Below, piece by piece: positions 45,013 to 61,519 of a stretch of 64,000 bases of DNA. A program made the translations under genes and the position numbers. Origin of the DNA: a virus. Its lineage: Duplodnaviria > Caudoviricetes. Location: IMG/VR virus record IMGVR_UViG_3300042452_000781, positions 582 to 64,581 of that record; one strand, written 5' to 3'. Numbering within the stretch: position 1 is the stretch's first letter; the number at the start of each line of letters is the position of its first letter. The notes beneath the pieces are model-generated. The model saw nothing but the letters and a program-made list of their open reading frames with translations. It made no database searches and was not told where the DNA came from.

Positions 45013-47516
45013 TCAACCAATAGTTGGGGCTTTTAGAGCAATTTCTTGAGTAGAAACTGCAGCCAAATCTACACTTGGCCCATAAGTTTACCATTCTTAT
45101 GGAGTGGACTATATCATCACCATTGAAGGTGTCGGACGCTTATTCCTGTTATTAAGGGGACTAAACCCCTCAGGTAGTCTCTGAAGTTTCCTCAAGTGTA
45201 CTTGAGGCTTACCTGCTGATTGCCCAGTGTTTTGGAGGGTTTCCAGCAATTCATCCGATGTTTCATCTATCAATTACTTGATAGAGCCACTAGATTTTCT
45301 AATGGGAAGTTGTGGGCGTTTCTCTCATGTCGTTTGTTATCGTAAGAACTCTTTATTTCTTACTTCTTACTATCACTAGTAAGTCCAGACTATCTCTTCA
45401 TCCGTTCTGGATGCTGGGCATTCGTGGGTAGATTATTGTTGGAACTCACTACCTAGTCGTTAGACCTGCCGAAGAACCTATGTCCTCTTCGGATTGGTAC
45501 GGGATTGTCTACTTGAGAGTTTCCCCGTTTAACCCAGTTTCGTCAAGGAATATTCCTATTCCAGGGTGACTACATTTAAGAAATCACTTCCATTCCAAGC
45601 CCAGCTTTGTTCAATACGTCCGACCAGGTATTAATTACCCGACCTTGACTATCTTGGATAGATTGATTGAAATTAAATCCGTTCAGGTTGAATGCCATAG
45701 TGCTAACACCAAGAGCAGTAAACCAGATGCCCACAACAGGCCATGCGGCGAGGAAGAAGTGCAGCGAACGGGAGTTATTAAAGGACGCATATTGGAAAAT
45801 AAGACGACCGAAATACCCGTGAGCGGCAACAATTGAATAAGTTTCTTCCTCTTGGCCAAACTTATACCCATAATTTTGAGATTCATTTTCGGTTGTTTCA
45901 CGAACAAGGCTGCTAGTGACTAACGAGCCATGCATCGCTGAGAAAAGACTTCCTCCGAATACTCCCGCCACACCCAACATGTGAAAAGGATGTTGAAGGA
46001 TATTGTGTTCTGCCTGGAATACCAACCATTAGGCAGAACGGGGACCTATGTTTTCATAGGGATTGGACTATCTCATAATTAATAGAAATTTCTATTAATC
46101 TCGGGCGCTGATTCTGGTTATTAAGAGGGCTATACCTCTCCAGTAGTCTCTACACTTTACATGAGTGTACTCAAGTCTTAGCACGGTATTGGCATATCTA
46201 TAAGACTTAGCTTTCACCGTTTTCACCCGATTTATACTACACATTGGTTTAGTTTATGTAGTTAAAGGTTCCTGAAATGCCAAGGGGCATCGCATCTGAA
46301 AAAGAACCTTGACCGAAGGGATAGATTAGGAATACGGCAGTAGCAGCAGCAACGGGTGCGCTGTAAGCAACCATAATCCAAGGACGCATTCCGAGACGAT
46401 AAGAAAGTTCCCATTCACGGCCCATGTAGCAGTAAATACCAATCAGGAAGTGAAATATGATGAGTTGAAATGGACCCCCATTATAGAGCCATTCATCAAG
46501 ACTTGCAGCTTCCCAAATTGGATAAAAATGCAGCCCAATAGCATTAGAAGAAGGAACAACAGCACCAGAGATAATGTTGTTACCATACATTAGTGAACCA
46601 GCAACTGGTTCACGAATCCCGTCGCTTACATCTAACAAACAACCATATCAATAGACTTAGGTTGTTTCTGTTGGCGAATTCGATTTGCTCTTTTTGCGTT
46701 TTCAACTCTTCCACCGTTTTCTACCCACTCTTTCCAAGTTTGTAGATGAGAAATACATTCGGTTATTCTTTCCCCCCGTCTTACTCCCATATAAGGGAGT
46801 ATTTTTTGTAGAATGAATAAGACCTTTTCTTTTTCTCCGATGTGAAGGGTATAAACTTGTTTCCCTGTTACCGTTTTTCTTGATGGAGAAAAGTAAGATT
46901 TATCTAAAAGTTTGCTCAACCTTTGGATAATATCTTCATCAACCATAGAAATTTTGATAAAGGGTGCTGGTGGTGTTTTAGAAATTTCATAGCGGTCTTT
47001 GGAACGATCATCTATTCCAAAGTATCCTTCACCTTCTAATAAACCAGCAATCCAAGCAATATCAGTTTCAGTTAAATTTAACATTTTGGTTTGCGTCTTC
47101 TGTATTATTTATACAGCATTAGCAACAAAAAGTCAACAGTAGATGTGTGGACTATATCTTCACCCTTTATAGAAGGGGCTGGGCACTTAAACCTGTTATT
47201 AAGGGGACTAAACCCCTCAGGTAGTCTCTGAACCTTCCCCAAGTGTACTTGAGGCTTGGCTGCTGATTGCCTTTCGGTTTCCAGCAATTCACCCAGTTTC
47301 GTCAATACTCTTACGAGTAAGGGACACCGATTAGTTAATGTCTACAGGAGGTGCGCCAATAAAAGCGATAATAAAAACTGAAGTAGCAGCAAGAAGGCAA
47401 GGAATCATAAGAACTCCAAACCATCCCACATATAAACGATTGTTCGTTGAAGTAACCCAGGAACAAAATTGCTCCCAGAGATTACCCCCCGAGCGTGTAG
47501 CAATTGAAGCGGTCAT
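45013..47516 (-). CDS. psbA: photosystem II D1 protein, five exons: 47516-47338, 46624-46256, 46026-45583, 45330-45302, 45071-45013 (359 aa spliced)
   Basis: The exons join in frame (179+369+444+29+59 = 1080 nt) to give a full D1 with standard numbering (D61, Y161, H190, H198, H332, E333, D342, A344). Confidence 0.97.
45072..45301 (-). mobile_element. group I intron 4 of psbA (after nt 1021), ORF-less, 230 nt
   Basis: P1 CCAU/GUGG; P10 AAAUCUA/UAGAUUU; CAGAGACUA and GAUAUAGUCC core; terminal G. Confidence 0.92.
45331..45582 (-). mobile_element. group I intron 3 of psbA (after nt 992), ORF-less, 252 nt
   Basis: P1 GUGAU/GUCAC; P10 AUGU/ACAU; AACGACUA and GAUAGUCU core; terminal G. Confidence 0.9.
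46027..46255 (-). mobile_element. group I intron 2 of psbA (after nt 548), ORF-less, 229 nt
   Basis: P1 CUACAU/GUGUAG; P10 ACCAAU/GUUGGU; AGAGACUA and GAUAGUCC core; terminal G. Confidence 0.92.
46625..47337 (-). mobile_element. group I intron 1 of psbA (after nt 179), contains a LAGLIDADG ORF
   Basis: 5' exon ends in U; P1 GACAU/GUGUC; P7 elements CAGAGACUA and GAUAUAGUCC; terminal G at 46625. Confidence 0.93.
46632..47084 (-). CDS. intron-encoded single-motif LAGLIDADG homing endonuclease
   Basis: [12 protein letters not shown] motif; lies 3' of the intron core; TATAAATA late promoter at 47106-47113. Confidence 0.88.
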
Positions 47517-47529
47517 ATTTGAAAAAAAG

Positions 47530-47630
47530 GTAACAAATATTCGCGGGGACGAATGTGATTATTATTTCTTCTCTCCCCCAGAGAAGATATGAGAGACGTA
47601 TTTGATGTGCAAAGTCTCGGTAAGCACGGG
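47530..47630 (-). ncRNA. structured psbA 5' leader, PhotoRC-II-like motif
   Basis: Minus strand GTGC..CCGAGAC..GCAC...GTCTC (pseudoknot pairing), then the hairpin TCTTCTCT-GGGGG-AGAGAAGA whose loop can pair with a downstream CCCC; resembles cyanophage psbA leaders as I recall them. Confidence 0.7.
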
Positions 47631-47664
47631 AGCAAGTTAGGAATCCCTGACCTGCTTGTGTATG

Positions 47665-47819: not shown

Positions 47820-48056
47820 CTAGATGTCTGGTCTGTTGAAGTTTGGCCGATGTATATACAAGGTAAATACAAGTCCTAGCCAGCCAAATAATACACTTGT
47901 GACGGAGAGAAAACTTACTGGGGCATGGACTCCAAGTGCTATCGCCAAGCAAGAAACTGTGCATTGTATTGAATAGACTGCTGCCTGCATTAAGGTTGGT
48001 GTGTTATCACGGTAGTTTCGAATTACCAGATTACAGCTACGAAAAAACTTGCACAT
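47820..48056 (-). CDS. small hypothetical membrane protein
   Basis: Start overlaps the upstream stop (TAATG); hydrophobic C-terminal half. Confidence 0.4.
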   Translation of the reverse strand: MCKFFRSCNLVIRNYRDNTPTLMQAAVYSIQCTVSCLAIALGVHAPVSFLSVTSVLFGWLGLVFTLYIHRPNFNRPDI

Positions 48057-48235
48057 TAGGGTTTCGGTACGAACACAAATCCCTTTCCTTCGCGATCTGC
48101 GGCTACCATCAGCTCAAGGGTATCAATTGCGGCTCTAATTACCTCCTCTTTCGGTACTTTCATGCTTGCTGATAGCTCTTCTAAGCGATCAACAAAATCT
48201 CTACTGGCATTAAATTGAATCCGTTTTATTGTCAT
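48056..48235 (-). CDS. ribbon-helix-helix (CopG/Arc-like) DNA-binding protein
   Basis: Manual 59-aa ORF MTIKRIQFNASRDFVDRLEELSASMKVPKEEVIRAAIDTLELMVAADREGKGFVFVPKP; beta-alpha-alpha pattern; overlaps both neighbours. Confidence 0.7.
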   Translation of the reverse strand: MTIKRIQFNASRDFVDRLEELSASMKVPKEEVIRAAIDTLELMVAADREGKGFVFVPKP

Positions 48236-49457: not shown

Positions 49458-49797
49458 TCAAATTCTCAAGATCATCAAAGAAATTTTCATCCAATGGAAC
49501 ACAGTCATCCAGATTAATGTTTGCGGTCATTTCCATCAAATCCTCTAAAAATTCTTTAGGATAGGTATCATCTTCATTCAAATCATACCAGAATGTTAAA
49601 TAGCATTCTTCAAAGGGGTTATCCTCATCTTGAAGAGCATAATTCTTTTGATTTTCAGGAAACCATACAAGGTCCATCCAGGTATGAAAATTGTTATAAA
49701 TGGATGTCCATCCTGTCATCCAACAGTGTTCAATCCAATAATTCCACCAATTTAACTTGGTCTTGTCTGTTGCTAAAATAGGTCTTGAAACTGTCAT
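49447..49797 (-). CDS. conserved cyanophage hypothetical protein
   Basis: W-rich N-terminus (LNWWNYWI.HCWMTGW) and DDTYPKEFLE.L motif. Confidence 0.75.
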   Translation of the reverse strand: MTVSRPILATDKTKLNWWNYWIEHCWMTGWTSIYNNFHTWMDLVWFPENQKNYALQDEDNPFEECYLTFWYDLNEDDTYPKEFLEDLMEMTANINLDDCVPLDENFFDDLENLIDD

Positions 49798-50198
49798 AAT
49801 GTTGGATGCTCCTTATAAAACTCATAGGCTCTTACGGTTTGAATGATTTCTCTTGTTGCGTTTGGGTTTCTTTCAACTCTCCAGCGAACATTAAAGCTCT
49901 CATCTCGGGCAAGAATTGTTAGAGTTTCGGGTGGTGTGTTAGGATTGGATGCAACTCCACAGCGAACAGTCCAATCCTCATCTTGAGCAAGAATCGTTAG
50001 AGTTTCGGGTGGTGTGTTGGGGTTGTTTGCAACTCTCCAGCGAACATCAACATCCTCATCTCGGGCAAGAATTGTTAGAGTTTCAGATGAAGAAGTCATA
50101 ACGAAATCAGTAGTGCAACCACCTCCACTGCCTCTTACAACTACCATAATATCATCTGGAAACTCGCTCAAGGCTTCAATCAATTCGGCCTTTGTCAT
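49794..50198 (-). CDS. LRV/HEAT-like repeat protein
   Basis: Three 24-aa repeats ETLTILA.DE...VR..VA.NPNTPP. Confidence 0.8.
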   Translation of the reverse strand: MTKAELIEALSEFPDDIMVVVRGSGGGCTTDFVMTSSSETLTILARDEDVDVRWRVANNPNTPPETLTILAQDEDWTVRCGVASNPNTPPETLTILARDESFNVRWRVERNPNATREIIQTVRAYEFYKEHPTL

Positions 50199-50407
50199 TT
50201 TGGGTGGCGGAGAACTGTTTAGGTATTATGAACCAATTTCTGCATAATAGTGAAATGAGTGGACAGTTTTTCCTTTGACCCTTTTGGTGAAATTTTTTGG
50301 CGGGAAAATTTTTAATGGATGAGGGGTGTCTTAAAACATATGGGACCCATTGACTTTTTATTTAAAACGCACTTGGGGGAATGGGTGGATGGGCGGTTCT
50401 TATCGCT

Positions 50408-50440
50408 AGGCCCAGGGGCCAGGCCCAGGGGCCAGGCCCC
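50408..50440. repeat. GC-rich 13-bp tandem repeat (aggcccaggggcc x2.5)
   Basis: Seen directly in a non-coding gap. Confidence 0.8.
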
Positions 50441-50578
50441 AATGGACGGCTAGGCTACTGTCCATAGTACACTTAGACTATAGTACAACTGTCCTATAAG
50501 ACCTGCTTATCACCCAATAAACATAAGAAAAGGCCCCCCAGATTGGAGGCCATTAACTATAAGAACTGTCTTCAATAC

Positions 50579-52069
50579 TTATAGAGATTTAGGCGGAACA
50601 TTCACCATGGTTAGGTGTTGTTTAGCGCGGGTAACTAGCACGTAGCATAGATTATCCTCCTGCCCAAGTTCCCACGGTTGCTTAGCCCATTTGCTAGGAG
50701 AATATGTGTTCATTCCTAGAGCAAACACTCTATTCCATTCTCTACCCTTTGCCTTATGAATTGTAGATAGCGTTAGAACTTGTTGTTTGCCGGTTTCGGT
50801 ATCACCAAACAGCTCCCGAATCTTACCAATTAATATATCCAAAGAATCCGAATCCTCGCACTGATATATAAAAACCTTAAGAGTTTCCGCCTGATCTTCT
50901 ACAACCTGGCACCTAGAATCGTTGCCCTTTTCTTTATGCTTGGCGATCTCTTTAGTCGCCCATTCTTCTAACCGAATCTCTAATTCTCCAACATTCTTTA
51001 CAGTCTTCCAGCGCATGGCTAGTTTAATCAATCCCTCACCGATTGAACGGCCTTCTACTCTACAGGCAACCGAGTTACGGATCAATTTGTATGCTAACTC
51101 CACCAAAGGTTTAGTATTACGACAGATGATAACATCCTGGGGTTTGGATATCTTAATAAGATCACCAATCTCACAAGCATCAACTATACCATCAGGTGCA
51201 GTTTCGTGAGCCTCAATATGATTGACCCAACGATTGGCCACCTTAACTATATTCTTAGGGCACCGATAAGTGACCGTAAGAGGCAGAGTTTCTGCCTTGA
51301 ATTCTGCCCGAATGTTATTCAGTGATTCGCTATCCGCCCCAGTAAATCCATAAATCGCCTGGCAAGGATCGCCTACAGCGATTAACCTACCATTAGGCTT
51401 TAACATCATTTTAACTAGAGCACGTCTGGAGGCATTAGTATCTTGCGCCTCATCTAACAAAATATAATCATACTGCCAAATCTTCATTCTATTAAGAATA
51501 GGAAGATATATCATATCACTAAAGTCTACAATTTGTGTCAGTGAATTGCTCACCTTAAGAAGATATTGTGCAGCATCTATTCCTTGTTCTTCACTTATAT
51601 TGTTGGGGAGCGTTTCTGCTATATTATAATGATTTAACATCTCTAGCCAATTATCTAGATTATTCTCCAATACTGCTCCTATTCCACACTCTTTAGCCAT
51701 TGCGGCTGCGGATATAACAAACGACTGTAGAGTTTCATATTCACCAGTGAATTCTCTACGGGCAAGTTCCCGTAGTTTGTTGCCGTCAACCTTAACGCGA
51801 CTTACGGCCCTACGAATAGCACCAAAACCGAAACTATGAAGTGTTCCTACCTTAATAGGAAGATTAAATGGGGCAATTTTAGATTCTATCTCAGTTGCGA
51901 TTGACTTGTTAAATGCACAGAATGCCCCGTTGCCTTGAGCAACTTTAGACATTTCAATCAAGGTTGTTGTTTTGCCGGCACCAGCTACCGCTTCCAGAAC
52001 GAGATTGGCGCGGGAAGATGTAACAAATTGAACAGCGGCGGTTTGCTGGGAGGAGAGTGAGCGAGCCAT
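50579..52069 (-). CDS. SF1 UvrD/Rep-like helicase
   Basis: AVAGAGKTT (Walker A), LLDEAQD, VGDPCQAIYGF.GA, TYRCP, STIHKAKGREW and YVLVTRAK motifs. Confidence 0.93.
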   Translation of the reverse strand: MARSLSSQQTAAVQFVTSSRANLVLEAVAGAGKTTTLIEMSKVAQGNGAFCAFNKSIATEIESKIAPFNLPIKVGTLHSFGFGAIRRAVSRVKVDGNKLRELARREFTGEYETLQSFVISAAAMAKECGIGAVLENNLDNWLEMLNHYNIAETLPNNISEEQGIDAAQYLLKVSNSLTQIVDFSDMIYLPILNRMKIWQYDYILLDEAQDTNASRRALVKMMLKPNGRLIAVGDPCQAIYGFTGADSESLNNIRAEFKAETLPLTVTYRCPKNIVKVANRWVNHIEAHETAPDGIVDACEIGDLIKISKPQDVIICRNTKPLVELAYKLIRNSVACRVEGRSIGEGLIKLAMRWKTVKNVGELEIRLEEWATKEIAKHKEKGNDSRCQVVEDQAETLKVFIYQCEDSDSLDILIGKIRELFGDTETGKQQVLTLSTIHKAKGREWNRVFALGMNTYSPSKWAKQPWELGQEDNLCYVLVTRAKQHLTMVNVPPKSL

Positions 52070-52147
52070 AGGGGTTTCCCTGGATTACTCAGACATTCTA
52101 GCACACTGGCAGCGGAACCGCAACATTTTCTTAAATTATATTAAAAG

Positions 52148-52190
52148 GCAGGGTTAGCGTGCCGTTTTGTATAAACGCGATTCGTTCGCT
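52148..52190 (-). ncRNA. putative sRNA repeat element A, copy 1 (inverted relative to the others)
   Basis: AGCGAACGAATCGCGTTTATACAAAACGGCACGCTAACCCTGC on the minus strand, 20 nt after a TTGACA-N18-TAGAAT promoter. Confidence 0.55.
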
Positions 52191-52318
52191 TCTATTCTGT
52201 TGTCTAATCTATTCTAGCAACTGCCGGTGGAATATGTCAAGCCTTCTAACCATTAGGATTGCTTATCACCCAATAAACATAATAAAAGGCCCCCAATAAG
52301 GAGGCCCATTAACTATAC

Positions 52319-52555
52319 TCACATATTCTGAATATCAATATCAAGAGCTAAAGTAGTGTTAGGCTGCTTAAGTCTAATAATATCCCCCATAACTTCGCGC
52401 CGGCAAACTACACCAGTCCAACCCATAATTGACTTCGAGAGTCTAACAATTTGTATATCAGTTAGACAATCTGTTCTGATAATCTCCTGCCTGCTATAGC
52501 AGTCGTTAACACTGTTATCAATAAGGCCGACTTTTTCAACTATAATCTTAATCAT
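52319..52555 (-). CDS. early hypothetical protein
   Basis: ORF between a promoter hub and a hairpin terminator. Confidence 0.7.
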   Translation of the reverse strand: MIKIIVEKVGLIDNSVNDCYSRQEIIRTDCLTDIQIVRLSKSIMGWTGVVCRREVMGDIIRLKQPNTTLALDIDIQNM

Positions 52556-52709
52556 GGCCGGGGTGTTGCTTTGGGACCTTCATATCCTACATCATCGGAT
52601 GCCCTACAACCGACCAACCATTGATGATCTTATCTTATGTGTCCGATAAGCAACGCTAATGTTCCAAACTGCTCCAACCATGCTAGGATAGTTTCAAGAA
52701 CAAAATAAG

Positions 52710-52752
52710 AGCGAACGACTCGCGTTTATAGAAAATGCCACGCTAATCCTGC
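52710..52752 (+). ncRNA. putative sRNA repeat element A, copy 2
   Basis: 43-bp core, 20 nt after TAGGAT. Confidence 0.55.
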
Positions 52753-52808
52753 TCTTAACTAATAATATAAAGATATAATAAAAGGCCCCCCAATAAGGGG
52801 GCAATTAA

Positions 52809-53210
52809 CTATGCAAGATCGCTCACAACTTCTGTACCATCCAGATAATGTGGAACACCGGCAATATAATCAATCGGCTCAAAGTTTCCGACTACATCCC
52901 ACGTTTCGGTGGTGAGAAAATTGTTTAGGGCAAACTCTGCAAACTTCATTGCGCCATCATTAGTCTTGAACTGCCCCAGATAATAATTGCATTCAGTAGT
53001 TGGGCCATCTGAAGTCATCTCAACCTTTACAAATAAGATTCCTAATTCTCTACCAGAACCTACCGTAAAGTTGATATAATACTGGAAGTCGTCAAATGCT
53101 GTTCGTATCGTATTGCTGTAAATGCCCCCTACAATCTGTTCTTGATTGTTTAGATAATTCCATACCAAACTTTGGTCTAGACCGATAGCCATAAACTTGT
53201 TGTTAATCAT
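52809..53210 (-). CDS. early hypothetical protein
   Basis: 133 aa; own TTGACA/TATTCT promoter and terminator. Confidence 0.75.
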   Translation of the reverse strand: MINNKFMAIGLDQSLVWNYLNNQEQIVGGIYSNTIRTAFDDFQYYINFTVGSGRELGILFVKVEMTSDGPTTECNYYLGQFKTNDGAMKFAEFALNNFLTTETWDVVGNFEPIDYIAGVPHYLDGTEVVSDLA

Positions 53211-53348
53211 GGCCGGGGGTGTTGCTTTGGGACTCTTTAAGAATAAACCGGTTTGGCTAGTCTGTCAAGCCTTGACCGATAAGCGTTTCTTATCGTTGAA
53301 TAAACATAAGAAAAGGCCCCCGATTGGAGGACCTTAACTATACCGAAA

Positions 53349-53963
53349 TCATCCAGGGAATTGTGTAGACAAGAAAGGAACTTCCGTCCAGATTCCTATA
53401 ACCTTTGTATCATCCTGAAAGGGTTTAACTATAGACCAAACTTTATTGCGACTGAATAGATTACAGCCACAAAAATGCATAAGAATTCTGTTTAACCTTT
53501 CCTTAGTAGATTTGGGACCTCCACTTACACGCAGAATTACAACTTTACGCTTGAAATCTACTGCTGCGAACAGCTTTTTCTGGTGGTAAATGTTTAGAGC
53601 ATCTTCACTACATTTGTGATTGAAGTTTCTACCCGTTAGCACTACAGCATCGGTACGGTAGTTATAGTAATTCTGATGCCGGATTGCCTCAATCAGACTG
53701 CGAATGGCTGGAGATTTAGAAGGATAATTATTGGCATCATTAAATATATCAATCATTGCTTGATATTGTTTAGCCACTAAAATGGCCTCATAATAAGCAG
53801 TAAAGGCTACCTCGCCTGTTTTTTTGACTCTAGTATATCCTGCTGCCCTAATAAGTTCTGCACGGGAAGCATAATCGCTTCCTTTCTTGTTGTGCTCAAG
53901 TAGAGCTAATCCCGTAAGTCTTTCTTGTGTTGTGTAGTCAATAACAAGCTGTTGGCTGGTCAT
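53349..53963 (-). CDS. cyAbrB N-terminal-like domain fused to a domain paralogous to 60605-60913
   Basis: True start probably MTSQQ (53963), downstream of the promoter; LTG.ALL...K...R.E....GY..V.K.G....T.YY.AIL.AK pattern; C-terminal TKERLNRIL. Confidence 0.65.
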   Translation of the reverse strand: MTSQQLVIDYTTQERLTGLALLEHNKKGSDYASRAELIRAAGYTRVKKTGEVAFTAYYEAILVAKQYQAMIDIFNDANNYPSKSPAIRSLIEAIRHQNYYNYRTDAVVLTGRNFNHKCSEDALNIYHQKKLFAAVDFKRKVVILRVSGGPKSTKERLNRILMHFCGCNLFSRNKVWSIVKPFQDDTKVIGIWTEVPFLSTQFPG

Positions 53964-54117
53964 TTGTTTACTGGCAACCTGCCAGTGATTGGTTGACTTG
54001 CTTAGTATAGGGGCAGTTCTGGCTGATACTGGCTGCTGGTGTGCCAGTTGTAGAAGTGTCTGAGAGGCACCCACAAGCGTCTACAATGGCCTTAGAATAC
54101 TCTTAACAACCTAGGAC

Positions 54118-54160
54118 AGCGAACGACTCGCGTTTATAGAAAATGCCACGCTAATCCTGC
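54118..54160 (+). ncRNA. putative sRNA repeat element A, copy 3
   Basis: AGCGAACGACTCGCGTTTATAGAAAATGCCACGCTAATCCTGC, 19 nt after TAGAAT. Confidence 0.55.
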
Positions 54161-54215
54161 TTGTTTATAAAAATATAAGAATATAAGAAAAGGCTCCCGA
54201 AAGAGCCTCTATAAG

Positions 54216-54485
54216 TTATGCTAATGCTCCAAGATTGCCTAACTGTATGGCTATCTTATGGGCGGCAATTCGTCGGTCGTTTAACATAAAAGTTGTCCGA
54301 CCTTTGGAGATCCTACAACTAATTTTAATATCAGTAAATCGCCCCTCTCCGGCATAACCTTGGCAGTGTAAGTCTGCCTCGCCTATAGCCCTTCCAGGCA
54401 AACCCATATTAGAAAGGGCTAACGTTTCAACATCCTTTCGCCGTTGGAAGTTCTGATCAAAGCTGGCGAGAGTGTAGGAAGCCAT
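54216..54485 (-). CDS. early hypothetical protein
   Basis: 89 aa cassette gene. Confidence 0.7.
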   Translation of the reverse strand: MASYTLASFDQNFQRRKDVETLALSNMGLPGRAIGEADLHCQGYAGEGRFTDIKISCRISKGRTTFMLNDRRIAAHKIAIQLGNLGALA

Positions 54486-54623
54486 TAGACTTGAGCGGTT
54501 GACTTGTTTATCCTAGAGGCAGTTCTGGCCGTTACTAGCTGCTGGTGTGCCGGTTGTAGAAGTGTCTGGAAGGGGCCTAGAAGAGCCTGCAAGGTGCTTA
54601 GAATACTCTTATCACCATAAGAC

Positions 54624-54666
54624 AGCGAACGACTCGCGTTTATAGAAAATGCCACGCTAATCCTGC
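54624..54666 (+). ncRNA. putative sRNA repeat element A, copy 4
   Basis: Core identical to copy 3, after TAGAAT. Confidence 0.55.
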
Positions 54667-54724
54667 TTGTTTATAAAAATATACAAAAAAAGAAGAGAAC
54701 CGAATCTCTTCTTATATCTTTATA

Positions 54725-55036
54725 TCAGTGCTTAGAACTCCAGGCTATAATCTTATTGGCTGCTACTTCAATAGAATCTGTATTACATTTACGAAACTTT
54801 TCTGTTTCAGACCTATTGAATTGTTCAATCTTACCTGCTCCGATATGAAACATAGCATATCGGGAATTATGATAAATCCCGTTAATCCACTGTTCCATTG
54901 GATCTAACGAAACCTTGACGATTAGACTGGCATTTTCTTCTCCACCTAGAGTGGATCTTTCCACATAATAATAAGGAAAGATTCCACTCAATAGTTCAAT
55001 CAATTTGGTCTCGTCTTCGGTGGATGGGATGAACAT
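54725..55036 (-). CDS. early hypothetical protein
   Basis: 103 aa; STLGG and W.NGIY.NSRY motif; own promoter. Confidence 0.75.
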   Translation of the reverse strand: MFIPSTEDETKLIELLSGIFPYYYVERSTLGGEENASLIVKVSLDPMEQWINGIYHNSRYAMFHIGAGKIEQFNRSETEKFRKCNTDSIEVAANKIIAWSSKH

Positions 55037-55111
55037 TTGTATGGTTCTGGTGACTTTCTAAGAATAACAGGCTTGACCGTGGTTGTCAAGCCCCTGAACG
55101 ATAAGCGTTTC

Positions 55112-55300
55112 TTATGCCAAGCAGAAGTCAATAGTAGTTTTTACTCCATTGTTTACTTCAATCAACTTTAATGGTCCATCTTTTTTATCTAAGAAAGACC
55201 TAGCCTTTTCATAGGTCTTAAACTTACCTAAACAAGTGTCAAGAGTTGGGCCGAATTGATTGAAAGATGACCCTGGTCTTACTACTTCATAGGTTGACAT
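55112..55300 (-). CDS. early hypothetical protein
   Basis: ATG at 55300; the stop lies inside the next palindromic box. Confidence 0.65.
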   Translation of the reverse strand: MSTYEVVRPGSSFNQFGPTLDTCLGKFKTYEKARSFLDKKDGPLKLIEVNNGVKTTIDFCLA

Positions 55301-55439
55301 AATCAATCCTCAGTGGTGGTTGACTTTTTAAGAATAAACCATCTGCAAGGGTATGTCAAGCCTTGAATGATAAGCATTGCTGATGGCCCGAAGGCTTGAC
55401 ATACATTAAGAGGTAGAATAATCTACCTCTTATTAGTTT

Positions 55440-55916
55440 TTATTGAAATTTACCCCTTGCAACCTGTAGTTCAAGAATAAACTTATCAAGTTCTTCTTTT
55501 TTGTAGAAGTATATATTACAACTGCGGCCAGCATCATTCCAAACCTCAACGCTAACAATCGTTTGAACCCCTTCTGTAACCGGGTTGCCATTAGTTCCAC
55601 CATATTCTCGCTTAATATAGTAAACTTCATAAGTATCTAAACCAGAGAGCGGAAGAATTGGCGTGTTATTGTAGATTTCTTCCCGTTCTTTGCGTCTCTG
55701 TTCTTTATAATCTTCTACTTGTTTGGCCACTTCTTCTACATTTTCGGTTATACCAACCTTTTTAATTGCACCATTAAGATCATGTTTGGGAAAATTAAAT
55801 GCTGCAGCAGAGTGAACACTAGTATCTGTATCTTGGGCCAGAAGCCTTAGGATACTTGTTGGGGTGTTTCCATTCTGGAGATCGATAATGTCCTGAATCT
55901 GTTCAGTGGTGGCCAT
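55440..55916 (-). CDS. early hypothetical protein with one LRV-like repeat
   Basis: NGNTPTSILRLLAQD.D.SV repeat unit near the N-terminus. Confidence 0.7.
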   Translation of the reverse strand: MATTEQIQDIIDLQNGNTPTSILRLLAQDTDTSVHSAAAFNFPKHDLNGAIKKVGITENVEEVAKQVEDYKEQRRKEREEIYNNTPILPLSGLDTYEVYYIKREYGGTNGNPVTEGVQTIVSVEVWNDAGRSCNIYFYKKEELDKFILELQVARGKFQ

Positions 55917-56053
55917 TTGATCTTGTTGCTTTGGGACTTTTTAAGAATAAACCTTTTTAGTCAGCCTGTCAAGCCTTGAATGATAAGCACTGCTGATGGT
56001 CCGAAGGCTTGACATACTGACTTCTCTGCTGCTATACTTTAAGAAAGAAAATA

Positions 56054-56096
56054 AGCGAACGACTCGCGTTTATAGAAAATGCCACGCTAATCCTGC
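56054..56096 (+). ncRNA. putative sRNA repeat element A, copy 5
   Basis: Identical core, 15 nt after a near-consensus TTGACA-N18-TATACT promoter. Confidence 0.6.
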
Positions 56097-56157
56097 TCTT
56101 AGATAAAAATATAAGAATATAAGAAAAAGCCTCCAATAAGGAGGCATAAGAATATGT

Positions 56158-56451
56158 TTATCGATCAATAATAAATCCTATTTTGTGTACCCCATCAGGA
56201 ATTTCTCCAAGTATAACTTCATATTTGTAAATACCGTTATTTTCATTACTTACCTCGTGAAATGGAATCTCAACTTCTAATAATTCGTCGGGATCAATAC
56301 AATCAATTCTAATATCATCTCCAAAATACTCGGCGGTTTCCTCCGGTAAGGAAACCTCCATTTCTTTACAAAATTGTAACACTTTAATGTGTTTTTGGTG
56401 CTCCAGATCTAAAGGTGAGCGAAAACCCTTTACACTGATTGACACTGACAT
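56158..56451 (-). CDS. early hypothetical protein
   Basis: 97 aa cassette gene. Confidence 0.75.
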   Translation of the reverse strand: MSVSISVKGFRSPLDLEHQKHIKVLQFCKEMEVSLPEETAEYFGDDIRIDCIDPDELLEVEIPFHEVSNENNGIYKYEVILGEIPDGVHKIGFIIDR

Positions 56452-56533
56452 TGTTTTGATTGGTTGGGGACTTTTTAAGAATAACAGGAGTTTAGGCGGT
56501 TGTCAATGGTTGATTGATAAGAACTGCTTATCG

Positions 56534-56755
56534 TTACCAATTCGCTGCAATTTCCTTGGCATTATCGCCAAGGAAACTATAACAAGCATCGGGAACTGGC
56601 CTACCCAAAATTTGACAACAACGCACCAATTCATCGCCGTCTGCCTGTATCCTGACCATGCCGTAGCAATTTACATTTAACCATTTCTTGGGGTCTTCGC
56701 TGGGAGTGGCTGGAATGTAGGCCATGGCGCCATTCAAATCACGGGCAATTAACAT
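56534..56755 (-). CDS. early hypothetical protein
   Basis: 73 aa cassette gene downstream of a promoter hub. Confidence 0.7.
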   Translation of the reverse strand: MLIARDLNGAMAYIPATPSEDPKKWLNVNCYGMVRIQADGDELVRCCQILGRPVPDACYSFLGDNAKEIAANW

Positions 56756-56895
56756 GGTTGCGGAGATCTGTTGACCTGTTCAGTATAGGGGCAGTTCTGG
56801 CTGATACCGGTTGGTGGTGTGCCAGTTGTAGAAGTGTCTGAGAGGCGTCTGGATGGGGCTGTAATGGCGTTAGAATACCTTTAACACCATAAGAC

Positions 56896-56938
56896 AGCGG
56901 GCGAACCGCGTTTATAGAAAATGCCACGCTAACCCTGC
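56896..56938 (+). ncRNA. putative sRNA repeat element A, copy 6
   Basis: Variant core AGCGGGCGAACCGCGTTTATAGAAAATGCCACGCTAACCCTGC, after TAGAAT. Confidence 0.55.
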
Positions 56939-57035
56939 TCTTAGATAAAAATATAAGAATATAAGAAAAGGCCCCCGAAGGAGCCTTTATATTACCAATT
57001 ATTACTAAACCTTATTTTATATACACCAGACGAGA

Positions 57036-57347
57036 TCAAGATGGGCCGTGCAGGTTAGGCGTAAACCACGGGAACCACCCGTCAATAAAAAAGTTGTACG
57101 TGTGACATTTGAAATCTGGGCCTACAATAACCCAATGTCCGTCCGGATTACATCCTGGTAGCCCAATTTCAGTCCAATATATCCAGGCTCTCCTAGTTGT
57201 TCTCTTCGTGAATTCAGATGGCTCTACACCTACCTTTACCATAACATCTTCGGTGGGTAAATCTGCAATCTGGGCCCATATGGGGCAACCAGTCTTTGGT
57301 GCGGATTCAATTGGCTCCATTTTTTGGCCGTTAACGGTGATAGTCAT
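57036..57347 (-). CDS. early hypothetical protein (PIESAPK.G motif)
   Basis: 103 aa cassette gene. Confidence 0.7.
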   Translation of the reverse strand: MTITVNGQKMEPIESAPKTGCPIWAQIADLPTEDVMVKVGVEPSEFTKRTTRRAWIYWTEIGLPGCNPDGHWVIVGPDFKCHTYNFFIDGWFPWFTPNLHGPS

Positions 57348-57487
57348 GGTGGTTTGGATCGGTTGACTTGTTCAGTATAGGGGCAGTTCTGGCTGATACC
57401 GGTTGGTGGTGTGCCAGTTGTAGAAGTGTCCTAGAGGCGTCTGGATGGGGCTGTAATGGCGTTAGAATACTCTTAACAACCTGACAC

Positions 57488-57530
57488 AGCGTAAGAAGCG
57501 CCTAAACACAAACGGGCACGCTAATCCTGC
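57488..57530 (+). ncRNA. putative sRNA repeat element A, copy 7 (subtype 2)
   Basis: AGCGTAAGAAGCGCCTAAACACAAACGGGCACGCTAATCCTGC, after TAGAAT. Confidence 0.55.
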
Positions 57531-57583
57531 TCTTTTTAAGAATATAAATAATACCAAAAAACCTCCAATAAGGAGGCTATTGT

Positions 57584-57910
57584 TTATACTGACTGTAAGA
57601 ACTGTAAAGACTTAACTAAATCTCTTTTTACCCATGTTGGTAGATTATTATACTGATCACTTTCAATAATATCTTCATGGATGATTAGACATCCTTTGAT
57701 ATAACAATTACCTTTCCGACCTTTCATTTCATTTACATTATTTACGGTTATTGCGGCTTGCATATTCCAAAAGAAAGACGAAACATTGTCGGCTAATTTC
57801 TGGCTGTTACTACCCTTAAGGTTTAGCCTATTAGCTAGTCTCCTGCCCGTCATTGTTGAAAAATGACGTAGAAACGGGATCTGTTCATTGGTGGGGAAGG
57901 GGCAGATCAT
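57584..57910 (-). CDS. early hypothetical protein
   Basis: 108 aa cassette gene. Confidence 0.7.
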   Translation of the reverse strand: MICPFPTNEQIPFLRHFSTMTGRRLANRLNLKGSNSQKLADNVSSFFWNMQAAITVNNVNEMKGRKGNCYIKGCLIIHEDIIESDQYNNLPTWVKRDLVKSLQFLQSV

Positions 57911-58053
57911 CGGCTTGCCTGGGGTGGTTGACTTGTTTAGTATAGGGGCAGTTCTGGCCGTTACTGATTGGTGGTGTGCCAGTCTTAGAAGTGTCCTAGA
58001 GGCACGTCTGAAGCGTCTGCAATGGCCTTAGAATACTCTTAACAACCTAGGAC

Positions 58054-58096
58054 AGCGAACGACTCGCGTTTATACAAAACGGCACGCTAATTCTGC
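58054..58096 (+). ncRNA. putative sRNA repeat element A, copy 8
   Basis: Variant core after TAGAAT. Confidence 0.55.
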
Positions 58097-58155
58097 TCTT
58101 AACTAATAATATAAAGATATAAAAAAAGACTCCCGAAGGAGCCTTATTAAATCAA

Positions 58156-58575
58156 TCAACAAGAAGGTTGAAAGTATATCTTATCGGTTGGAGTCATAAT
58201 TGTAGTAATAACTCCATCATCACTTACTGTAGTCTTTTCCTCTAACCAATAAAATGCAGTTTCAAGTCTGCCACCCTTTCGTATAAGTTCTCTTTCCTCT
58301 TCAGTTAGATTATCCCACTTGTTTAATACTTTACGACCATCCAGGCCGATTGTAAGTAATAGGGTGTGCTTATCAAGCATTGATTGCCATTTAGCATAAG
58401 CATAAGACGTTAATGCCTCTTGCTTATATTTTGGGAGCCTCTTAAAGGCTGGCTCCGCGTATAGATTATTAAGGCCATCTTTGGCATGGTTTAGATTTTG
58501 TCTGTAACTTACTGCCGCAGATATGGCTCCATTGATTCTGGCCTGATAGTTTGAATAAACATCGGTGGTGGCCAT
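58156..58575 (-). CDS. early hypothetical protein
   Basis: 139 aa; own promoter and terminator. Confidence 0.75.
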   Translation of the reverse strand: MATTDVYSNYQARINGAISAAVSYRQNLNHAKDGLNNLYAEPAFKRLPKYKQEALTSYAYAKWQSMLDKHTLLLTIGLDGRKVLNKWDNLTEEERELIRKGGRLETAFYWLEEKTTVSDDGVITTIMTPTDKIYFQPSC

Positions 58576-58658
58576 GGTGGTTTGTGGGGCTGGGGGACTT
58601 TTTAAGAATATCAGGAGCTTGAGAGGTTGTCAAGCCCCTGAACGATAAGCAGTTCTTA

Positions 58659-59105
58659 TCAGTATACAAAGGGTAGAATCTTATCACGTAGGGCATAAAT
58701 TTCATCGTCTAATTCTTTGATTTTATTAATTGTGGCTTCAACTTCATCTAGTGTGTATTCTGTATATTCTTTCGGTTCTTTAAGACTGCTAAGATCATCA
58801 AAATTAATCCTTGCAATATCGAAATGTTTAGTTGCTCTTTCGGTTCTGTGTTCTGATACTGAATACCTATAAGAAACTTCTGCAGATATACTACAAGAAT
58901 AAAAGTGAAATATAATAGAACACCCGTAACCAGCTCTGAGAATGTCCATCTCATCACTGATCTTCTTAATAAAAGTTCTATAAGGAGTGGTCTTGATTAC
59001 CTTCTTACCGATATAGGGTTCTAGAATTGTGTTTATCTTATCGTTAATTTCCCTGGCCAGTCTGTTGACTAAATTGGTGGCTTCAACTTTGGCAGCGAGT
59101 GTCAT
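58659..59105 (-). CDS. early hypothetical protein
   Basis: True start probably MTLAAK (59105); the longer track ORF reads through promoter DNA. Confidence 0.7.
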   Translation of the reverse strand: MTLAAKVEATNLVNRLAREINDKINTILEPYIGKKVIKTTPYRTFIKKISDEMDILRAGYGCSIIFHFYSCSISAEVSYRYSVSEHRTERATKHFDIARINFDDLSSLKEPKEYTEYTLDEVEATINKIKELDDEIYALRDKILPFVY

Positions 59106-59190
59106 GGTGGTGTGGTTGTGGGCAGTTGACTTTTTAAGAATATCAGGAGCTTGAGAGATTGTCAAGCCCCTGAACGATAAGCATTTCTTA

Positions 59191-59499
59191 TCATTCAAAA
59201 ATGATGTTTTCGTCTAAAGAATTAAACCCGGTTAATTCCTTAAAAGAATTCTTAAGATACTTAATGAGTGTAGTGATATTTTTACCCTTAAACTGTGCCA
59301 GATCAATTATATCATCGCCATACTCAATCTCATCGGGAATCTCTAGAATTTTGATCTTACCTGTTACAATATGAATAGGATAGAAATACCATCTGCTACC
59401 CATAAACTCGCTTCGGTTTTGAGCATCTGAAACTGTAGGGAATTCCCCTTCAGTTACCTTTTCACCGTCAAGAGCGAGACAGACAAGTTTGTAAGACAT
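59191..59499 (-). CDS. early hypothetical protein (MGSRWYFYP motif)
   Basis: 102 aa cassette gene. Confidence 0.75.
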   Translation of the reverse strand: MSYKLVCLALDGEKVTEGEFPTVSDAQNRSEFMGSRWYFYPIHIVTGKIKILEIPDEIEYGDDIIDLAQFKGKNITTLIKYLKNSFKELTGFNSLDENIIFE

Positions 59500-59520
59500 T
59501 GTGGTGGAGTGGTTGACTTC

Positions 59521-59940
59521 TTAAGAATACCCGGTTTTTAAGGGCTTGTCAATGGTTGAATGATAAGCAGTTCTTATCCAATATGAAATATCAATTTCCT
59601 TTAGTGTTTCAAGAATATTACCGGGAACTAATACTTCTACACTATCAGCATAAAATACCTTAAAGGCGCGATCTATTAGGGCAATTTCTAACGGCCCCAT
59701 AAGATAGGGAGCACAACCAATCATAACACCTTCACACTTATCTCTATGGCCACCGTCATAAAGAAACCTATAATCACTTGCAATGTAGGCTATATTTTTA
59801 GCCCTTTGTATTATGGGAAGCTCGCTAAGTGTAAGAAGTTTTCTAACCTCTTGGAGCATATCATCAATGTGAATATCAACAATTCCTGTGGCTATTTGTT
59901 CTGCGGTTGCATCGTGTTGAGTTAGATTGATAATGGCCAT
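59521..59940 (-). CDS. NLTQH-family phage protein, Csx20/Csx15-like, C-terminus apparently damaged
   Basis: IINLTQH.AT.EQ, MIG.APYLM.PLE.AL and VFYA motifs; the ORF tail runs through the next promoter. Confidence 0.55.
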   Translation of the reverse strand: MAIINLTQHDATAEQIATGIVDIHIDDMLQEVRKLLTLSELPIIQRAKNIAYIASDYRFLYDGGHRDKCEGVMIGCAPYLMGPLEIALIDRAFKVFYADSVEVLVPGNILETLKEIDISYWIRTAYHSTIDKPLKTGYS

Positions 59941-59964
59941 TTGATTGGAGGTAAGTTTATAAAG

Positions 59965-60195
59965 TTACGGTAGTTCATCCTTAGTTTTGATAAGTTGATT
60001 CAGAATATAATTAAATGCTCGTTTCATATCTTCGGGTGATACCTCTACTTCCACTAACTTTTCTTCGGTATCAAAACAATAAGAACATGTATTACAAGAA
60101 TACCGACGCACGGTTACATCACCAGATTCTAAAAGCTTATGTGTTGTTAGAAGATGGTTACGGTCGTAACCATTACAGATTGGACATTGGGCCAT
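59965..60195 (-). CDS. zinc-ribbon protein (NrdR-N/Ogr-like)
   Basis: CPIC...RRYSCNTC...F.TEE motif. Confidence 0.75.
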   Translation of the reverse strand: MAQCPICNGYDRNHLLTTHKLLESGDVTVRRYSCNTCSYCFDTEEKLVEVEVSPEDMKRAFNYILNQLIKTKDELP

Positions 60196-60333
60196 TTGAG
60201 GCGGGGCAGGGGGACTTTTAATAATATACCATTTTCAGGTTCGCTGTTGTGGTGGTGGGTCAGTTGTAGAAGTGTCTGGAAGGCACCTAGAAGAGCCTGT
60301 AGGGGGCCTAGAATACCTTAGACAACCTAGGAC

Positions 60334-60376
60334 AGCGTAAGAAGCGCCTAAACATAAACCGGCACGCTAATCCTGG
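60334..60376 (+). ncRNA. putative sRNA repeat element A, copy 9 (subtype 2)
   Basis: AGCGTAAGAAGCGCCTAAACATAAACCGGCACGCTAATCCTGG, after TAGAAT. Confidence 0.55.
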
Positions 60377-60464
60377 GCTCTTATAAAAATATAACGAATA
60401 CAAAATAAGACTCCCCCGAATGAGAGAGTCTTATCTTAATGGATTAGGGCATGTTGAGGGCCTC

Positions 60465-60531
60465 TTATTGATTGGGGGAAGCAAGAATTGTTAGAGTTTC
60501 TGATGGAGTGTTGTGAGTGGATTAGAGCATG
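60465..60531 (-). pseudogene. remnant of an LRV-repeat gene
   Basis: Minus-strand frame HNTPSETLTILASPNQ*; the DNA gcaagaattgttagagtttc matches the repeats in 49794-50198; it sits behind an intact promoter. Confidence 0.5.
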
Positions 60532-60604
60532 ATGGGAACCTCTCTTTCTTCTTAAGAATAACAGGGGCTTGAGAGTTTGTCAAGCCCTTAATGATAAGTG
60601 TTTC

Positions 60605-60913
60605 TTATTGGAGAAACATTCCACTTTCAAAGGGAACATCTTTACCATTATCATTTACGAACCATTCAAAGTTCTTTTGAAAGATCCCCCAACCACGAGA
60701 TTGAAGTATAGCATTTAGCCGGCTCTTTGTGGTTTTTGTTTGCCAGCCGCCATCAAAGATTTGGATAAAATTACCACCAATTTTGGCAATAAGATTGCCG
60801 TGGAGTAGAACTTTAATAACTCCATCTTCGGTGATTACGGTAGTGTTACCACCGCCGAAGTTCCTGCCATTGGAGATGGCTTGATTCATCTTCTGTTCAA
60901 TGATGCGGGTCAT
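60605..60913 (-). CDS. conserved cyanophage early protein
   Basis: IEQKMN.AI, LHGNLIA and GWQT.TTKSRLNAIL motifs. Confidence 0.8.
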   Translation of the reverse strand: MTRIIEQKMNQAISNGRNFGGGNTTVITEDGVIKVLLHGNLIAKIGGNFIQIFDGGWQTKTTKSRLNAILQSRGWGIFQKNFEWFVNDNGKDVPFESGMFLQ

Positions 60914-60996
60914 GTGTCTGGGGGGTGGTTGACTTTTTAAGAATAACAGGGGCCTGAATGAATGTCAAGCCCCGAATGATAAGAACTTCTTATTGG

Positions 60997-61146
60997 TCAA
61001 TTATCTATTTCCAAAATGGGCCAAAGTAAACCGCCAATAATTCCAAAAGGAATGGCGAATAGGATAACACCTACGGGGCCAAGATAAAAACCAGAAAGAC
61101 CACTAATAGTCATAACAAACAGCAGATTGAAGTAATTGATTTTCAT
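60997..61146 (-). CDS. small two-TM membrane protein
   Basis: True start probably MKINY (61146); two hydrophobic segments. Confidence 0.6.
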   Translation of the reverse strand: MKINYFNLLFVMTISGLSGFYLGPVGVILFAIPFGIIGGLLWPILEIDN

Positions 61147-61202
61147 GTTGATGGTTGCTTTGGTTGAGGACTTTTTAAGAATACCAGGTTTTTGTCGGGC
61201 TG

Positions 61203-61451
61203 TCAAGGGGTTGGATGATAAGGAGTTCTTATGCTGACCCTGCCATCCCTCAACCATCTAACAACCGGCTTCAATGATTTTTGGTCTGGCCACTTATAAT
61301 AGCCGTCATCTATTAAGTTTTTGCCTACATGTGTAACCTCAACCTCTTCATTATCCACGTTCAAATAAATCGAGGTGCCGAACTGGGCTGCGGCATCGGC
61401 ACTGAAATAAGCATGGCGTGGGGTTTCATCCATGTTTTCAAGGGTAGTCAT
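61203..61451 (-). CDS. early hypothetical protein
   Basis: 82 aa; EVTHV and Y.WPD motif. Confidence 0.7.
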   Translation of the reverse strand: MTTLENMDETPRHAYFSADAAAQFGTSIYLNVDNEEVEVTHVGKNLIDDGYYKWPDQKSLKPVVRWLRDGRVSIRTPYHPTP

Positions 61452-61519
61452 TTGATTGGGTTTGGGACTTAACTATAATACCACATTTTGTGTGGTGTGG
61501 TGAATGTGTGTGCCAGTTC

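Follow-up and report, generated by a model that had tools for sequence, protein, structure and literature searches.

A LysR-type dyad at predicted early promoters of freshwater T4-like cyanophages matches a csoS1-cbbL promoter element of the host family

Promoter-linked dyads in the window

The stretch of DNA analyzed here (the window) comprises 64,000 nucleotides (nt) of the IMG/VR virus record IMGVR_UViG_3300042452_000781 (positions 582 to 64,581), a 64.6-kb record with an estimated completeness of 30%; the element in question is a short inverted repeat, ATAAG-N5-CTTAT, that recurs at predicted early promoters between positions 50496 and 61232. T4-type neck, sheath-stabilizer and baseplate genes were found in the window, which also carries psbA. 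Among named phages, B3 and B23, two 245-kb Synechococcus phages, are most closely related to it; gp15 is 53% identical, and a UvrD-like helicase is 63% identical. The metagenomes that contain DNA of this stretch are of freshwater and lake origin. Because of these T4-type genes, the kinship with B3 and B23, psbA and the habitat, we take the window phage to be a freshwater T4-like cyanophage. The genes in the dyad region lie on the minus strand, and those downstream of the promoter modules are ORFans or members of families of unknown function, as is typical of the early hyperplastic region. Megablast of the 50- to 62-kb part of the window and blastn of one 81-nt promoter cassette gave zero matches to named phages, and an Rfam search gave no match at the dyads or cassettes.

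The clustered, promoter-linked occurrence of the dyad was confirmed. The exact form is present at 10 sites in the window, where 0.16 are expected, and all 10 lie inside 50496-61232; the highest count in 100 dinucleotide shuffles was 3. When one mismatch was allowed, the count rose to 21 (expected, 4.85), with 18 sites inside this interval. A previous reading of the sequence only (here, the sequence-only reading) had described 14 such boxes, allowing the variants ATTAG-, -CTAAT and -CTGAT; the clustering was borne out, but with these variants the count is 15, namely, the 10 exact sites plus those at 52252, 52646, 54211, 55370 and 55983. Its description of the layout was accurate. The dyads usually lie 10 to 11 nt upstream of TTGACA (12 of the 15 are 10 or 11 nt from an exact TTGACA); those at 55370 and 55983 stand between outward-facing TTGACA boxes, the second box being on the plus strand, 11 nt away on the other side; and the element has the T-N11-A form of a LysR-type dyad, with 5-bp inverted arms, the T at dyad position 2 and the A at position 14.

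A promoter scan that was blind to the dyad retrieved 16 exact matches to TTGACA-N16-18-TAnnnT in the window. Fourteen of these lie in the 52- to 61-kb region, and every one of the 14 has a dyad at 10 to 11 nt; the other two fall inside structural genes, at about the chance level (mononucleotide-shuffle mean, 3.9). Past the TTGACA of the 12 dyad promoters come N17 (N18 once) and TATTCT (TAGAAT once). Two dyads (55370 and 55983) are each shared by a divergent promoter pair, and three (50496, 52646 and 54211) have no -35 box. Read along the minus strand, the module opens with the preceding gene's stop codon or terminator, after which come the dyad, 10 to 11 nt (C-A/G-TTCA-A/G-GG-C), TTGACA, 17 nt, TATTCT followed by TAAAAAGTC, a CA-rich leader of 24 to 31 nt, and ATG. 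If transcription starts about 7 nt past the -10 box, the dyad spans approximately -60 to -46 and is centered at approximately -53. The promoter cassettes belong to families D4 to D6, which are 60 to 97% identical across 66 to 77 nt.

The first minus-strand module, at 61178-61232 (dyad, 61218-61232; -35 box TTGACA, 61201-61206; -10 box TATTCT, 61178-61183), is predicted to drive a 49-amino-acid open reading frame (ORF) at 60997-61146. It is followed by the modules at 60940-60993 (dyad, 60979-60993; -35, 60963-60968; -10, 60940-60945), ahead of ORF 60605-60913 (Kyano_Gp96 / phrog_554), and at 60555-60608 (dyad, 60594-60608; -35, 60578-60583; -10, 60555-60560), which has no ORF immediately downstream and enters a copy of the D3 repeat in antisense. 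Next come 59524-59577 (dyad, 59563-59577; -35, 59547-59552; -10, 59524-59529), which would drive ORF 59191-59499; 59137-59191 (dyad, 59177-59191; -35, 59160-59165; -10, 59137-59142), which would drive 58659-59105; and 58605-58659 (dyad, 58645-58659; -35, 58628-58633; -10, 58605-58610), with ORF 58156-58575 downstream. The module at 56478-56531 (dyad, 56517-56531; -35, 56501-56506; -10, 56478-56483) precedes ORF 56158-56451, and that at 55061-55115 (dyad, 55101-55115; -35, 55084-55089; -10, 55061-55066) precedes ORF 54725-55036 (phrog_3308). Terminators stand ahead of two modules: 53240-53293 (intrinsic terminator; dyad, 53279-53293; -35, 53263-53268; -10, 53240-53245), which would drive 52809-53210, and 52211-52266, where the dyad (52252-52266; ATAAG...CTAAT on the minus strand) is followed by a -35 box at 52235-52240, N18 and TAGAAT at 52211-52216, and which enters an inverted D3 copy at 52136-52190.

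Two modules are bidirectional. At 55944-56038, the dyad (55983-55997; ATCAG...CTTAT on the minus strand) serves a minus-strand promoter (-35, 55967-55972; -10, 55944-55949) ahead of ORF 55440-55916 and a plus-strand promoter (TTGACA, 56009-56014; N18; TATACT, 56033-56038) that enters a D3 copy at 56037-56134. At 55331-55424, the dyad (55370-55384) lies between a minus-strand promoter (-35, 55354-55359; -10, 55331-55336) for ORF 55112-55300 and a plus-strand promoter (TTGACA, 55396-55401; N17; TAATCT, 55419-55424). A terminator-like hairpin at 55408-55445 on the plus strand (a 10-bp stem and then a T run) overlaps the -10 box of the latter; for this reason, the apparent promoter might reflect the 50-nt extended palindrome instead of marking a real start. 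The dyads with no -35 box are likewise placed beside other signals. That at 50496-50510 lies immediately past the terminator of the UvrD-like helicase gene (50579-52069), with short direct repeats next to it on the minus strand; that at 52646-52660, in a plus-strand arrangement spanning 52646-52689, is followed 20 nt on by the extended -10-like TGCTAGGAT ahead of a D3 copy (52693-52790); and the variant at 54211-54225 (ATAAG...CTAAT) adjoins a terminator-like hairpin and copies of the D1 and D3 repeats.

Phage arrays and the host csoS1-cbbL promoter

IMG/VR was scanned for the dyad in combination with TTGACA, and most matches were single and consistent with chance. Arrays of dyads were found in two contigs: G001, a 32-kb contig with 12 exact dyads, and G002, a complete genome of 247,932 bp in which 11 of the 12 exact dyads lie within 96-120 kb. 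Reversed-pattern controls gave 0 matches in G001 and 1 in G002. The early region of G002 holds approximately 25 to 30 dyads, and a more specific cassette pattern was found in five IMG/VR contigs in all. When a promoter-anchored set was assembled (57 promoters from G000, G001 and the early region of G002), 53 of the 57 had a dyad with at most two mismatches, at a gap of exactly 10 nt in 30 cases and 11 nt in 23. Mismatches were concentrated at dyad positions 3 (8 mismatches) and 13 (22 mismatches); elsewhere in the dyad, they were at the background level contributed by the four dyad-less promoters. Since the spacing is constant across three cassette subfamilies of G002 that differ in their spacers and -10 boxes, the distance between dyad and -35 box appears to be kept by selection and not just by recent duplication.

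Among the close relatives, G001 carries extra cassettes (26870 and 27190) between the counterparts of window sites 59177 and 59563. The more distant phage B3 (53 to 63% protein identity) has five dyads at 114-120 kb, placed at -60 to -46 of TATTCT boxes; tandem dyad pairs 22 bp apart were seen twice, and one promoter has no recognizable -35 box. In the marine T4-like cyanophages S-SM2, P-SSM4, SynMITS9220M01, Bellamy and S-SCSM1, the relaxed dyad occurred at the control level only. On these comparisons, the dyad-promoter module appears to be a lineage trait of freshwater and brackish T4-like cyanophages, represented by the window phage, G001, G002 and B3.

Genomes of the host family, Cyanobiaceae, were reached through the published cyanobacterial 16S primer CYA359F (Vulcanococcus limneticus is G003). 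Over 81 of these genomes, exact dyads numbered about 150 in the forward pattern and 107 in the reversed control (hand tally), barely above control; therefore, there is no large regulon and the signal comes from one locus. In four genomes, the dyad precedes a BMC-domain gene by approximately 125 nt, and the gene for the RuBisCO large subunit comes next (csoS1-cbbL). For a motif-blind comparison, cbbL loci were taken from the best-scoring 30 of 75 genomes with a match and from 20 genomes chosen among the other matches, larger and high-GC ones being favored, so that the sample is 50 genomes out of several hundred Cyanobiaceae species. A dyad with at most two mismatches was present upstream of csoS1 in 30 of 30 loci in the first set and in 19 of 20 in the second, the exception being L323.

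The surroundings of the host dyad are conserved as well. TTGAC stands 43 nt past it in 46 of 52 placed sites (the 49 plus 3 from the dyad search), CATTGT follows 17 to 18 nt past TTGAC, a conserved leader precedes the start codon, and a conserved box, gAc.gTgAT, lies at approximately -60, between the dyad and the -35 box. If TTGAC is read as the -35 box, the host dyad is centered at approximately -86. Of 49 sites, 48 have CTTAT as the right arm; the left arm reads ATAAG in 27, ATCAG in 10, ATGAG in 6 and ATTAG in 5. In a search that let any position vary, 23 of 24 host mismatches were at arm position 3.

These data point to the same element in phage and host. Some sites of both read ATTAG or CTAAT. 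High-GC host genomes, the type infected by B3-like phages, have ATCAG/ATGAG-N5-CTTAT; the ATCAG form also occurs in B3 and at 55370 and 55983 of the window, and one B3 site is identical to the host site in L336. Exact dyads are scarce in high-GC genomes of 2 to 3.5 Mb (0 to 2 per genome), and when present they are repeatedly the one at cso, which makes a match by chance very unlikely. By its sequence and its pattern of variation, with the same free position, the dyad of the phage early promoters is therefore the same element as that of the host cso promoter. A consistent orientation, with the degenerate arm distal as in the host, was also considered and was dropped because the degenerate arm is proximal in many G002 cassettes.

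Two further observations were made on host loci. In many high-GC Cyanobiaceae, an SbtA-family (PF05982) gene lies directly upstream of csoS1 on the same strand (L372, L382 and L371; G003:C1:49531-52843), and the dyad is then flanked by the sbtA-like gene on one side and the cso operon on the other. Another exact dyad that recurs was found at 1501-1515 in L277 (G084) and L278 (G007), just downstream of prmA (ribosomal protein L11 methyltransferase); it has the common flank ggtctccgattggacc and is probably also present in G066, and the neighboring genes have no Pfam match.

A dyad upstream of repeated early promoters brings to mind the promoter-early stem-loop (PeSL) cassettes of T4-like phages (Arbiol et al. 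2010; Comeau et al. 2014, PMC4122927). As described there, these place a stem-loop beside a sigma70-like early promoter, a leader and a start codon and are repeated between ORFans of the hyperplastic region, some copies following a terminator and the number of cassettes varying among close relatives. The window resembles this description in its 14 promoters in 52-61 kb, its cassette families, its T4-like structural genes and the ORFans downstream. It could thus be envisioned that no transcription factor is involved: the dyad would be part of a duplicated PeSL-like cassette that serves recombinational shuffling or RNA 3'-end formation, or it would make an UP-like contact, and the host match would be coincidental. 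The 60 to 97% identity among cassettes and the extra cassettes of G001 are in line with this explanation. A stable stem-loop, however, was not found. The mean minimum free energy of the dyad hairpins was -2.65 kcal/mol, against -0.90 kcal/mol for shuffles, which is a weak stem; the central pair is disrupted without compensation in 16 of 43 phage sites. The dyad as a stem-loop was therefore rejected.

The UP element is an A/T tract at about -40 to -60 that is touched by the alpha subunit of RNA polymerase and works only beside a core promoter. The phage dyad overlaps this zone, yet it has G and C fixed at set positions, and in the host the same element lies at about -86, beyond the range of an UP element. 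Both the dyad sequence and its spacing outlast the divergence of the rest of the cassette, in the G002 subfamilies and in B3, and the same 10 specified bases and free position recur in 49 of 50 host genomes at a single promoter, while exact copies are few in the high-GC ones. We consequently disfavor the absence of a transcription factor and regard it as highly improbable. As far as described in PMC4122927, PeSL stems vary between phage groups and are not tied to a host factor; the window dyad differs in being conserved in sequence rather than in pairing and in equaling a host operator. As for cyanophages, a high density of PeSLs was judged absent from S-PM2 (PMC4503421), and sigma70-like early motifs without an upstream dyad have been reported for S-PM2 and Syn9.

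Candidate regulator and role at the promoter

The best-matching known operator is that of RbcR. A 2026 review (PMC13249358) that cites Bolay et al. 2022 prints the Synechocystis motif as ATTA(G/A)-N5-(C/T)TAAT, the form that the sequence-only reading had given, and reports activation from a position about 90 nt ahead of the start. Eight of the 10 specified bases of the dyad are equal to this motif, and the difference lies at arm position 3, the freely varying one. The two also share the 5-5-5 architecture with T-N11-A, and the host-family element at about -86 is close to the reported activating position. The phage dyad differs from the RbcR operator in standing at about -53, 10 to 11 nt from a consensus -35 box, and in recurring on 12 to 25 promoters whose ORFan genes are unrelated.

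Host genomes G013 and G035 (1.8 Mb) each encode a single LysR regulator, which is also present in larger genomes; its N-terminal helix-turn-helix (HTH) is nearly identical in the four genomes with a readable start. The best solved relative of this protein is 5Y2V, a cyanobacterial "Rubisco operon transcriptional regulator"; NCBIfam gave it no equivalog-level name, and its exact-sequence cluster is nameless. A 2026 preprint infers RbcR control of a small cso-cbbLS expression module in Prochlorococcus MED4. None of the four phage records encodes a LysR-type HTH. The factor that binds the dyad is thus most likely the RbcR/CbbR-type LysR regulator of the host. The sequence-only reading had linked the boxes to a host regulator of RuBisCO and the carbon-concentrating mechanism; this link gained from the sharing of the dyad with csoS1-cbbL in 49 of 50 genomes and from the free position common to it and the RbcR motif, and the control of early transcription and the titration that it also proposed are still inferences. 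A dyad was sought upstream of the sbtA-like gene as well and was present at 0 of 29 host loci.

A binder encoded by the phage or delivered in the virion was considered as an alternative, the candidate being the ribbon-helix-helix (RHH) protein at 48056-48235. Such a protein would switch the early promoters off (or on) in place of AsiA and MotA, and it might compete at the cso operator. Its RHH domain is genuine, albeit barely above threshold (22 bits; cutoff, 20.5), homologues are present in G001 (95% identity) and G002 (43%), motA and asiA are absent from cyanomyoviruses, and one site common to all early promoters would suit a global early shutoff switch. However, no RHH homologue was found in the dyad-bearing phage B3, in a search whose sensitivity is limited for a 59-amino-acid protein. 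In addition, the element is kept at one operon of uninfected hosts, so that a host protein recognizes it, and a phage protein of the same specificity is an extra assumption; the phage records also offer no LysR-type HTH. We consider this alternative unlikely.

Our preferred explanation, to which we assign an even prospect of being correct, is that this phage lineage copied the LysR operator of the host csoS1-cbbL promoter onto its sigma70-type early promoters and that early transcription is boosted or licensed by it. The host regulator would bind the phage dyad as a dimer and, from about -53, touch RNA polymerase. The dyad stands 43 nt from the presumed -35 box in the host and 10 to 11 nt from it in the phage; as the difference of 32 to 33 bp amounts to some three turns of the helix, a dimer on the phage site would approach the polymerase from almost the same side as in the host, though from right beside it, roughly at the place of the host proximal box gAc.gTgAT. 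In this way, the onset of infection would be tied to an abundant, indispensable regulator of host carbon fixation. Licensing is favored because the regulator is present in every host cell and is hard for the host to lose. As a by-product, the 15 to 30 sites of each replicating phage genome would compete with a single host operator.

Such competition might also be the whole purpose of the dyads. As a pure decoy, they would titrate the cso-operon regulator from its single chromosomal operator during replication and lower carboxysome and RuBisCO synthesis, with no service to the promoters. Cyanophage inhibition of CO2 fixation is a known strategy. There is essentially one conserved operator per host genome, compared with 15 in this fragment and about 25 to 30 in the G002 early region, most phage sites (27 of 43) are perfect palindromes with both arms in the host-invariant form, and three window dyads have no promoter. 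Nevertheless, a sponge could work at any distance from a -35 box, yet the dyad is kept at exactly 10 to 11 nt in 53 of 57 promoters across diverged subfamilies, and the sites are restricted to early promoters rather than spread genome-wide (in G002, nearly all exact dyads fall in the early region). So strict a spacing speaks for a function at the promoter; we find a pure decoy distinctly unlikely, and titration may be a side effect of operator borrowing. A bolder version would join the two: all early transcription would be licensed through the host LysR protein, while the 15 to 30 perfect operators per genome copy strip it from the host operator, a protein-free decoy that halts new carboxysome and RuBisCO synthesis and keeps photosynthetic electron flow (psbA). 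We consider this improbable.

The same host regulator could instead act as a brake. Occupancy of -60 to -46 would then hinder alpha-subunit contacts or block read-through between cassettes, so that early expression is damped or insulated according to carbon status. This idea shares the evidence for recognition by a host factor, LysR proteins often repress from their recognition site, and promoters with a perfect -35 box need damping more than activation. According to PMC13249358, the RbcR motif can repress at some positions, but the repression described there is exerted from about -10 rather than -53. It is also hard to explain why a lytic phage would brake every early promoter, and the B3 promoter that has tandem dyads ahead of TATTCT and no recognizable -35 box looks activator dependent. 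A brake seems to us very doubtful.

Several observations weigh against activation by a borrowed operator. With a perfect -35 box and a 17-nt spacer, the phage promoters may need no activator. The canonical LysR layout has a recognition binding site near -65 along with an activation binding site (ABS) at -35/-10, with the tetramer contacting about 50 to 60 bp; the phage dyad, at about -53 and 10 to 11 nt from the -35 box, does not follow it and differs also from the host position of about -86. No second conserved, ABS-like upstream site was evident in the flank consensus of G000 and G001, and LysR binding is a prediction for alpha-cyanobacteria and phage alike. The close phage geometry was found in 0 of 201 host-family genomes, so activation from this position has no host precedent, and the host -35, -10 and start positions are themselves inferred from conservation.

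The assignment of the host dyad to RbcR draws on likeness to the motif of a distant cyanobacterium and on elimination. Synechocystis RbcR activates both its own gene and sbtA, according to PMC13249358; in the host family, the sbtA-like loci had no dyad, and none was found within 400 nt upstream of the LysR gene in the five loci with a readable conserved frame, and of two further LysR loci, one was siteless and the other had only a one-mismatch, chance-like string at the start codon. On the phage side, one-mismatch dyads in the whole B3 genome (12) were fewer than in the reversed control (29), and its sites number just five; because the genome-wide count is not above control, the case for the dyad in B3 therefore rests on clustering and context. 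The control-level counts in the five marine relatives imply that the device is dispensable for T4-like cyanophages generally, and no RNA data set containing 52000-61500 is listed.

Borrowing of this kind has a parallel in the NtcA and PhoB boxes, host transcription factor sites upstream of cyanophage genes. There, too, a phage borrows the operator of a host nutrient status regulator; however, those boxes serve a few auxiliary metabolic genes, whereas the present operator stands on essentially every early promoter and belongs to a carbon fixation regulator. A literature search, whose reach did not extend to supplements or the primary RbcR paper, retrieved no paper in which RbcR or LysR sites are tied to cyanophage promoters.

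The way in which transcription is begun and timed in T4-like cyanophages, which have neither Alt/Mod nor AsiA/MotA, is an open question, and a whole class of early promoters that carries a host operator offers a concrete candidate factor for the onset. If the factor is RbcR, the start of infection, and perhaps host carbon fixation, would be coupled through one essential regulator that is hard to lose, with implications for the coevolution of phage and host and for how viruses affect CO2 fixation in aquatic habitats. A by-product of the comparison is a sharply defined, deeply conserved cis element of the alpha-carboxysome operon promoter in Prochlorococcus, Synechococcus and Cyanobium-type genomes. 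Genetic manipulation of these organisms is difficult, and RbcR control in them has so far only been inferred.

Neighboring repeats and photosynthesis genes

A repeat family, D1 to D3 (98 to 227 nt), is interleaved with the promoter cassettes over 52136-60414 of the window, in five to seven copies plus an inverted one. Plus-strand copies start at 52693, 54101, 54607, 56037, 56879, 58037 and 60317, and the inverted copy is at 52136-52190. Three copies lie just downstream, in sense, of dyad-bearing promoters: those with the -35 box at 56009 (plus strand) and 52240 (minus strand) and TGCTAGGAT after the dyad at 52646. The family had no Rfam match; it may encode small or antisense RNAs or act as a second regulatory cassette serving genes devoid of dyad promoters. 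Past the dyad at 50496, the minus strand at about 50400-50495 holds the direct repeats GTACTAT-A/G-G (twice) and GGACAGT (twice) and then tandem GGGCCTGGCCCCT-like repeats; an LRV/HEAT-repeat ORF (49794-50198) lies downstream of them. In G002, too, a similar pair of repeats comes after a dyad (position 27583 of the 90- to 125-kb stretch).

The content of photosynthesis genes varies among the dyad-bearing phages. psbA (PF00124) and hli (PF00504) were sought in the complete genome G002, which IMG/VR classes as a "provirus," and neither was detected; in contrast, psbA is present in the window phage, and hli-like genes are present in B3. Compared with genome contigs, the B3 hli-like protein matched only two stretches of metagenome-assembled genomes (Parvibaculum and Chloroflexota), which are probably phage-derived contamination. 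The window psbA (45080-47639, minus strand) is interrupted by group I introns, apparently four, with Rfam matches at 45080-45313, 45366-45632, 46044-46314 and 47126-47347; the Photo_RC exons are at 47331-47516, 46249-46638 and 45576-46025 on the minus strand. A LAGLIDADG-type ORF (46632-47084) lies within this region, and a PhotoRC-II RNA motif (47554-47639) lies upstream of the gene. Four introns within one phage psbA would be unusual.

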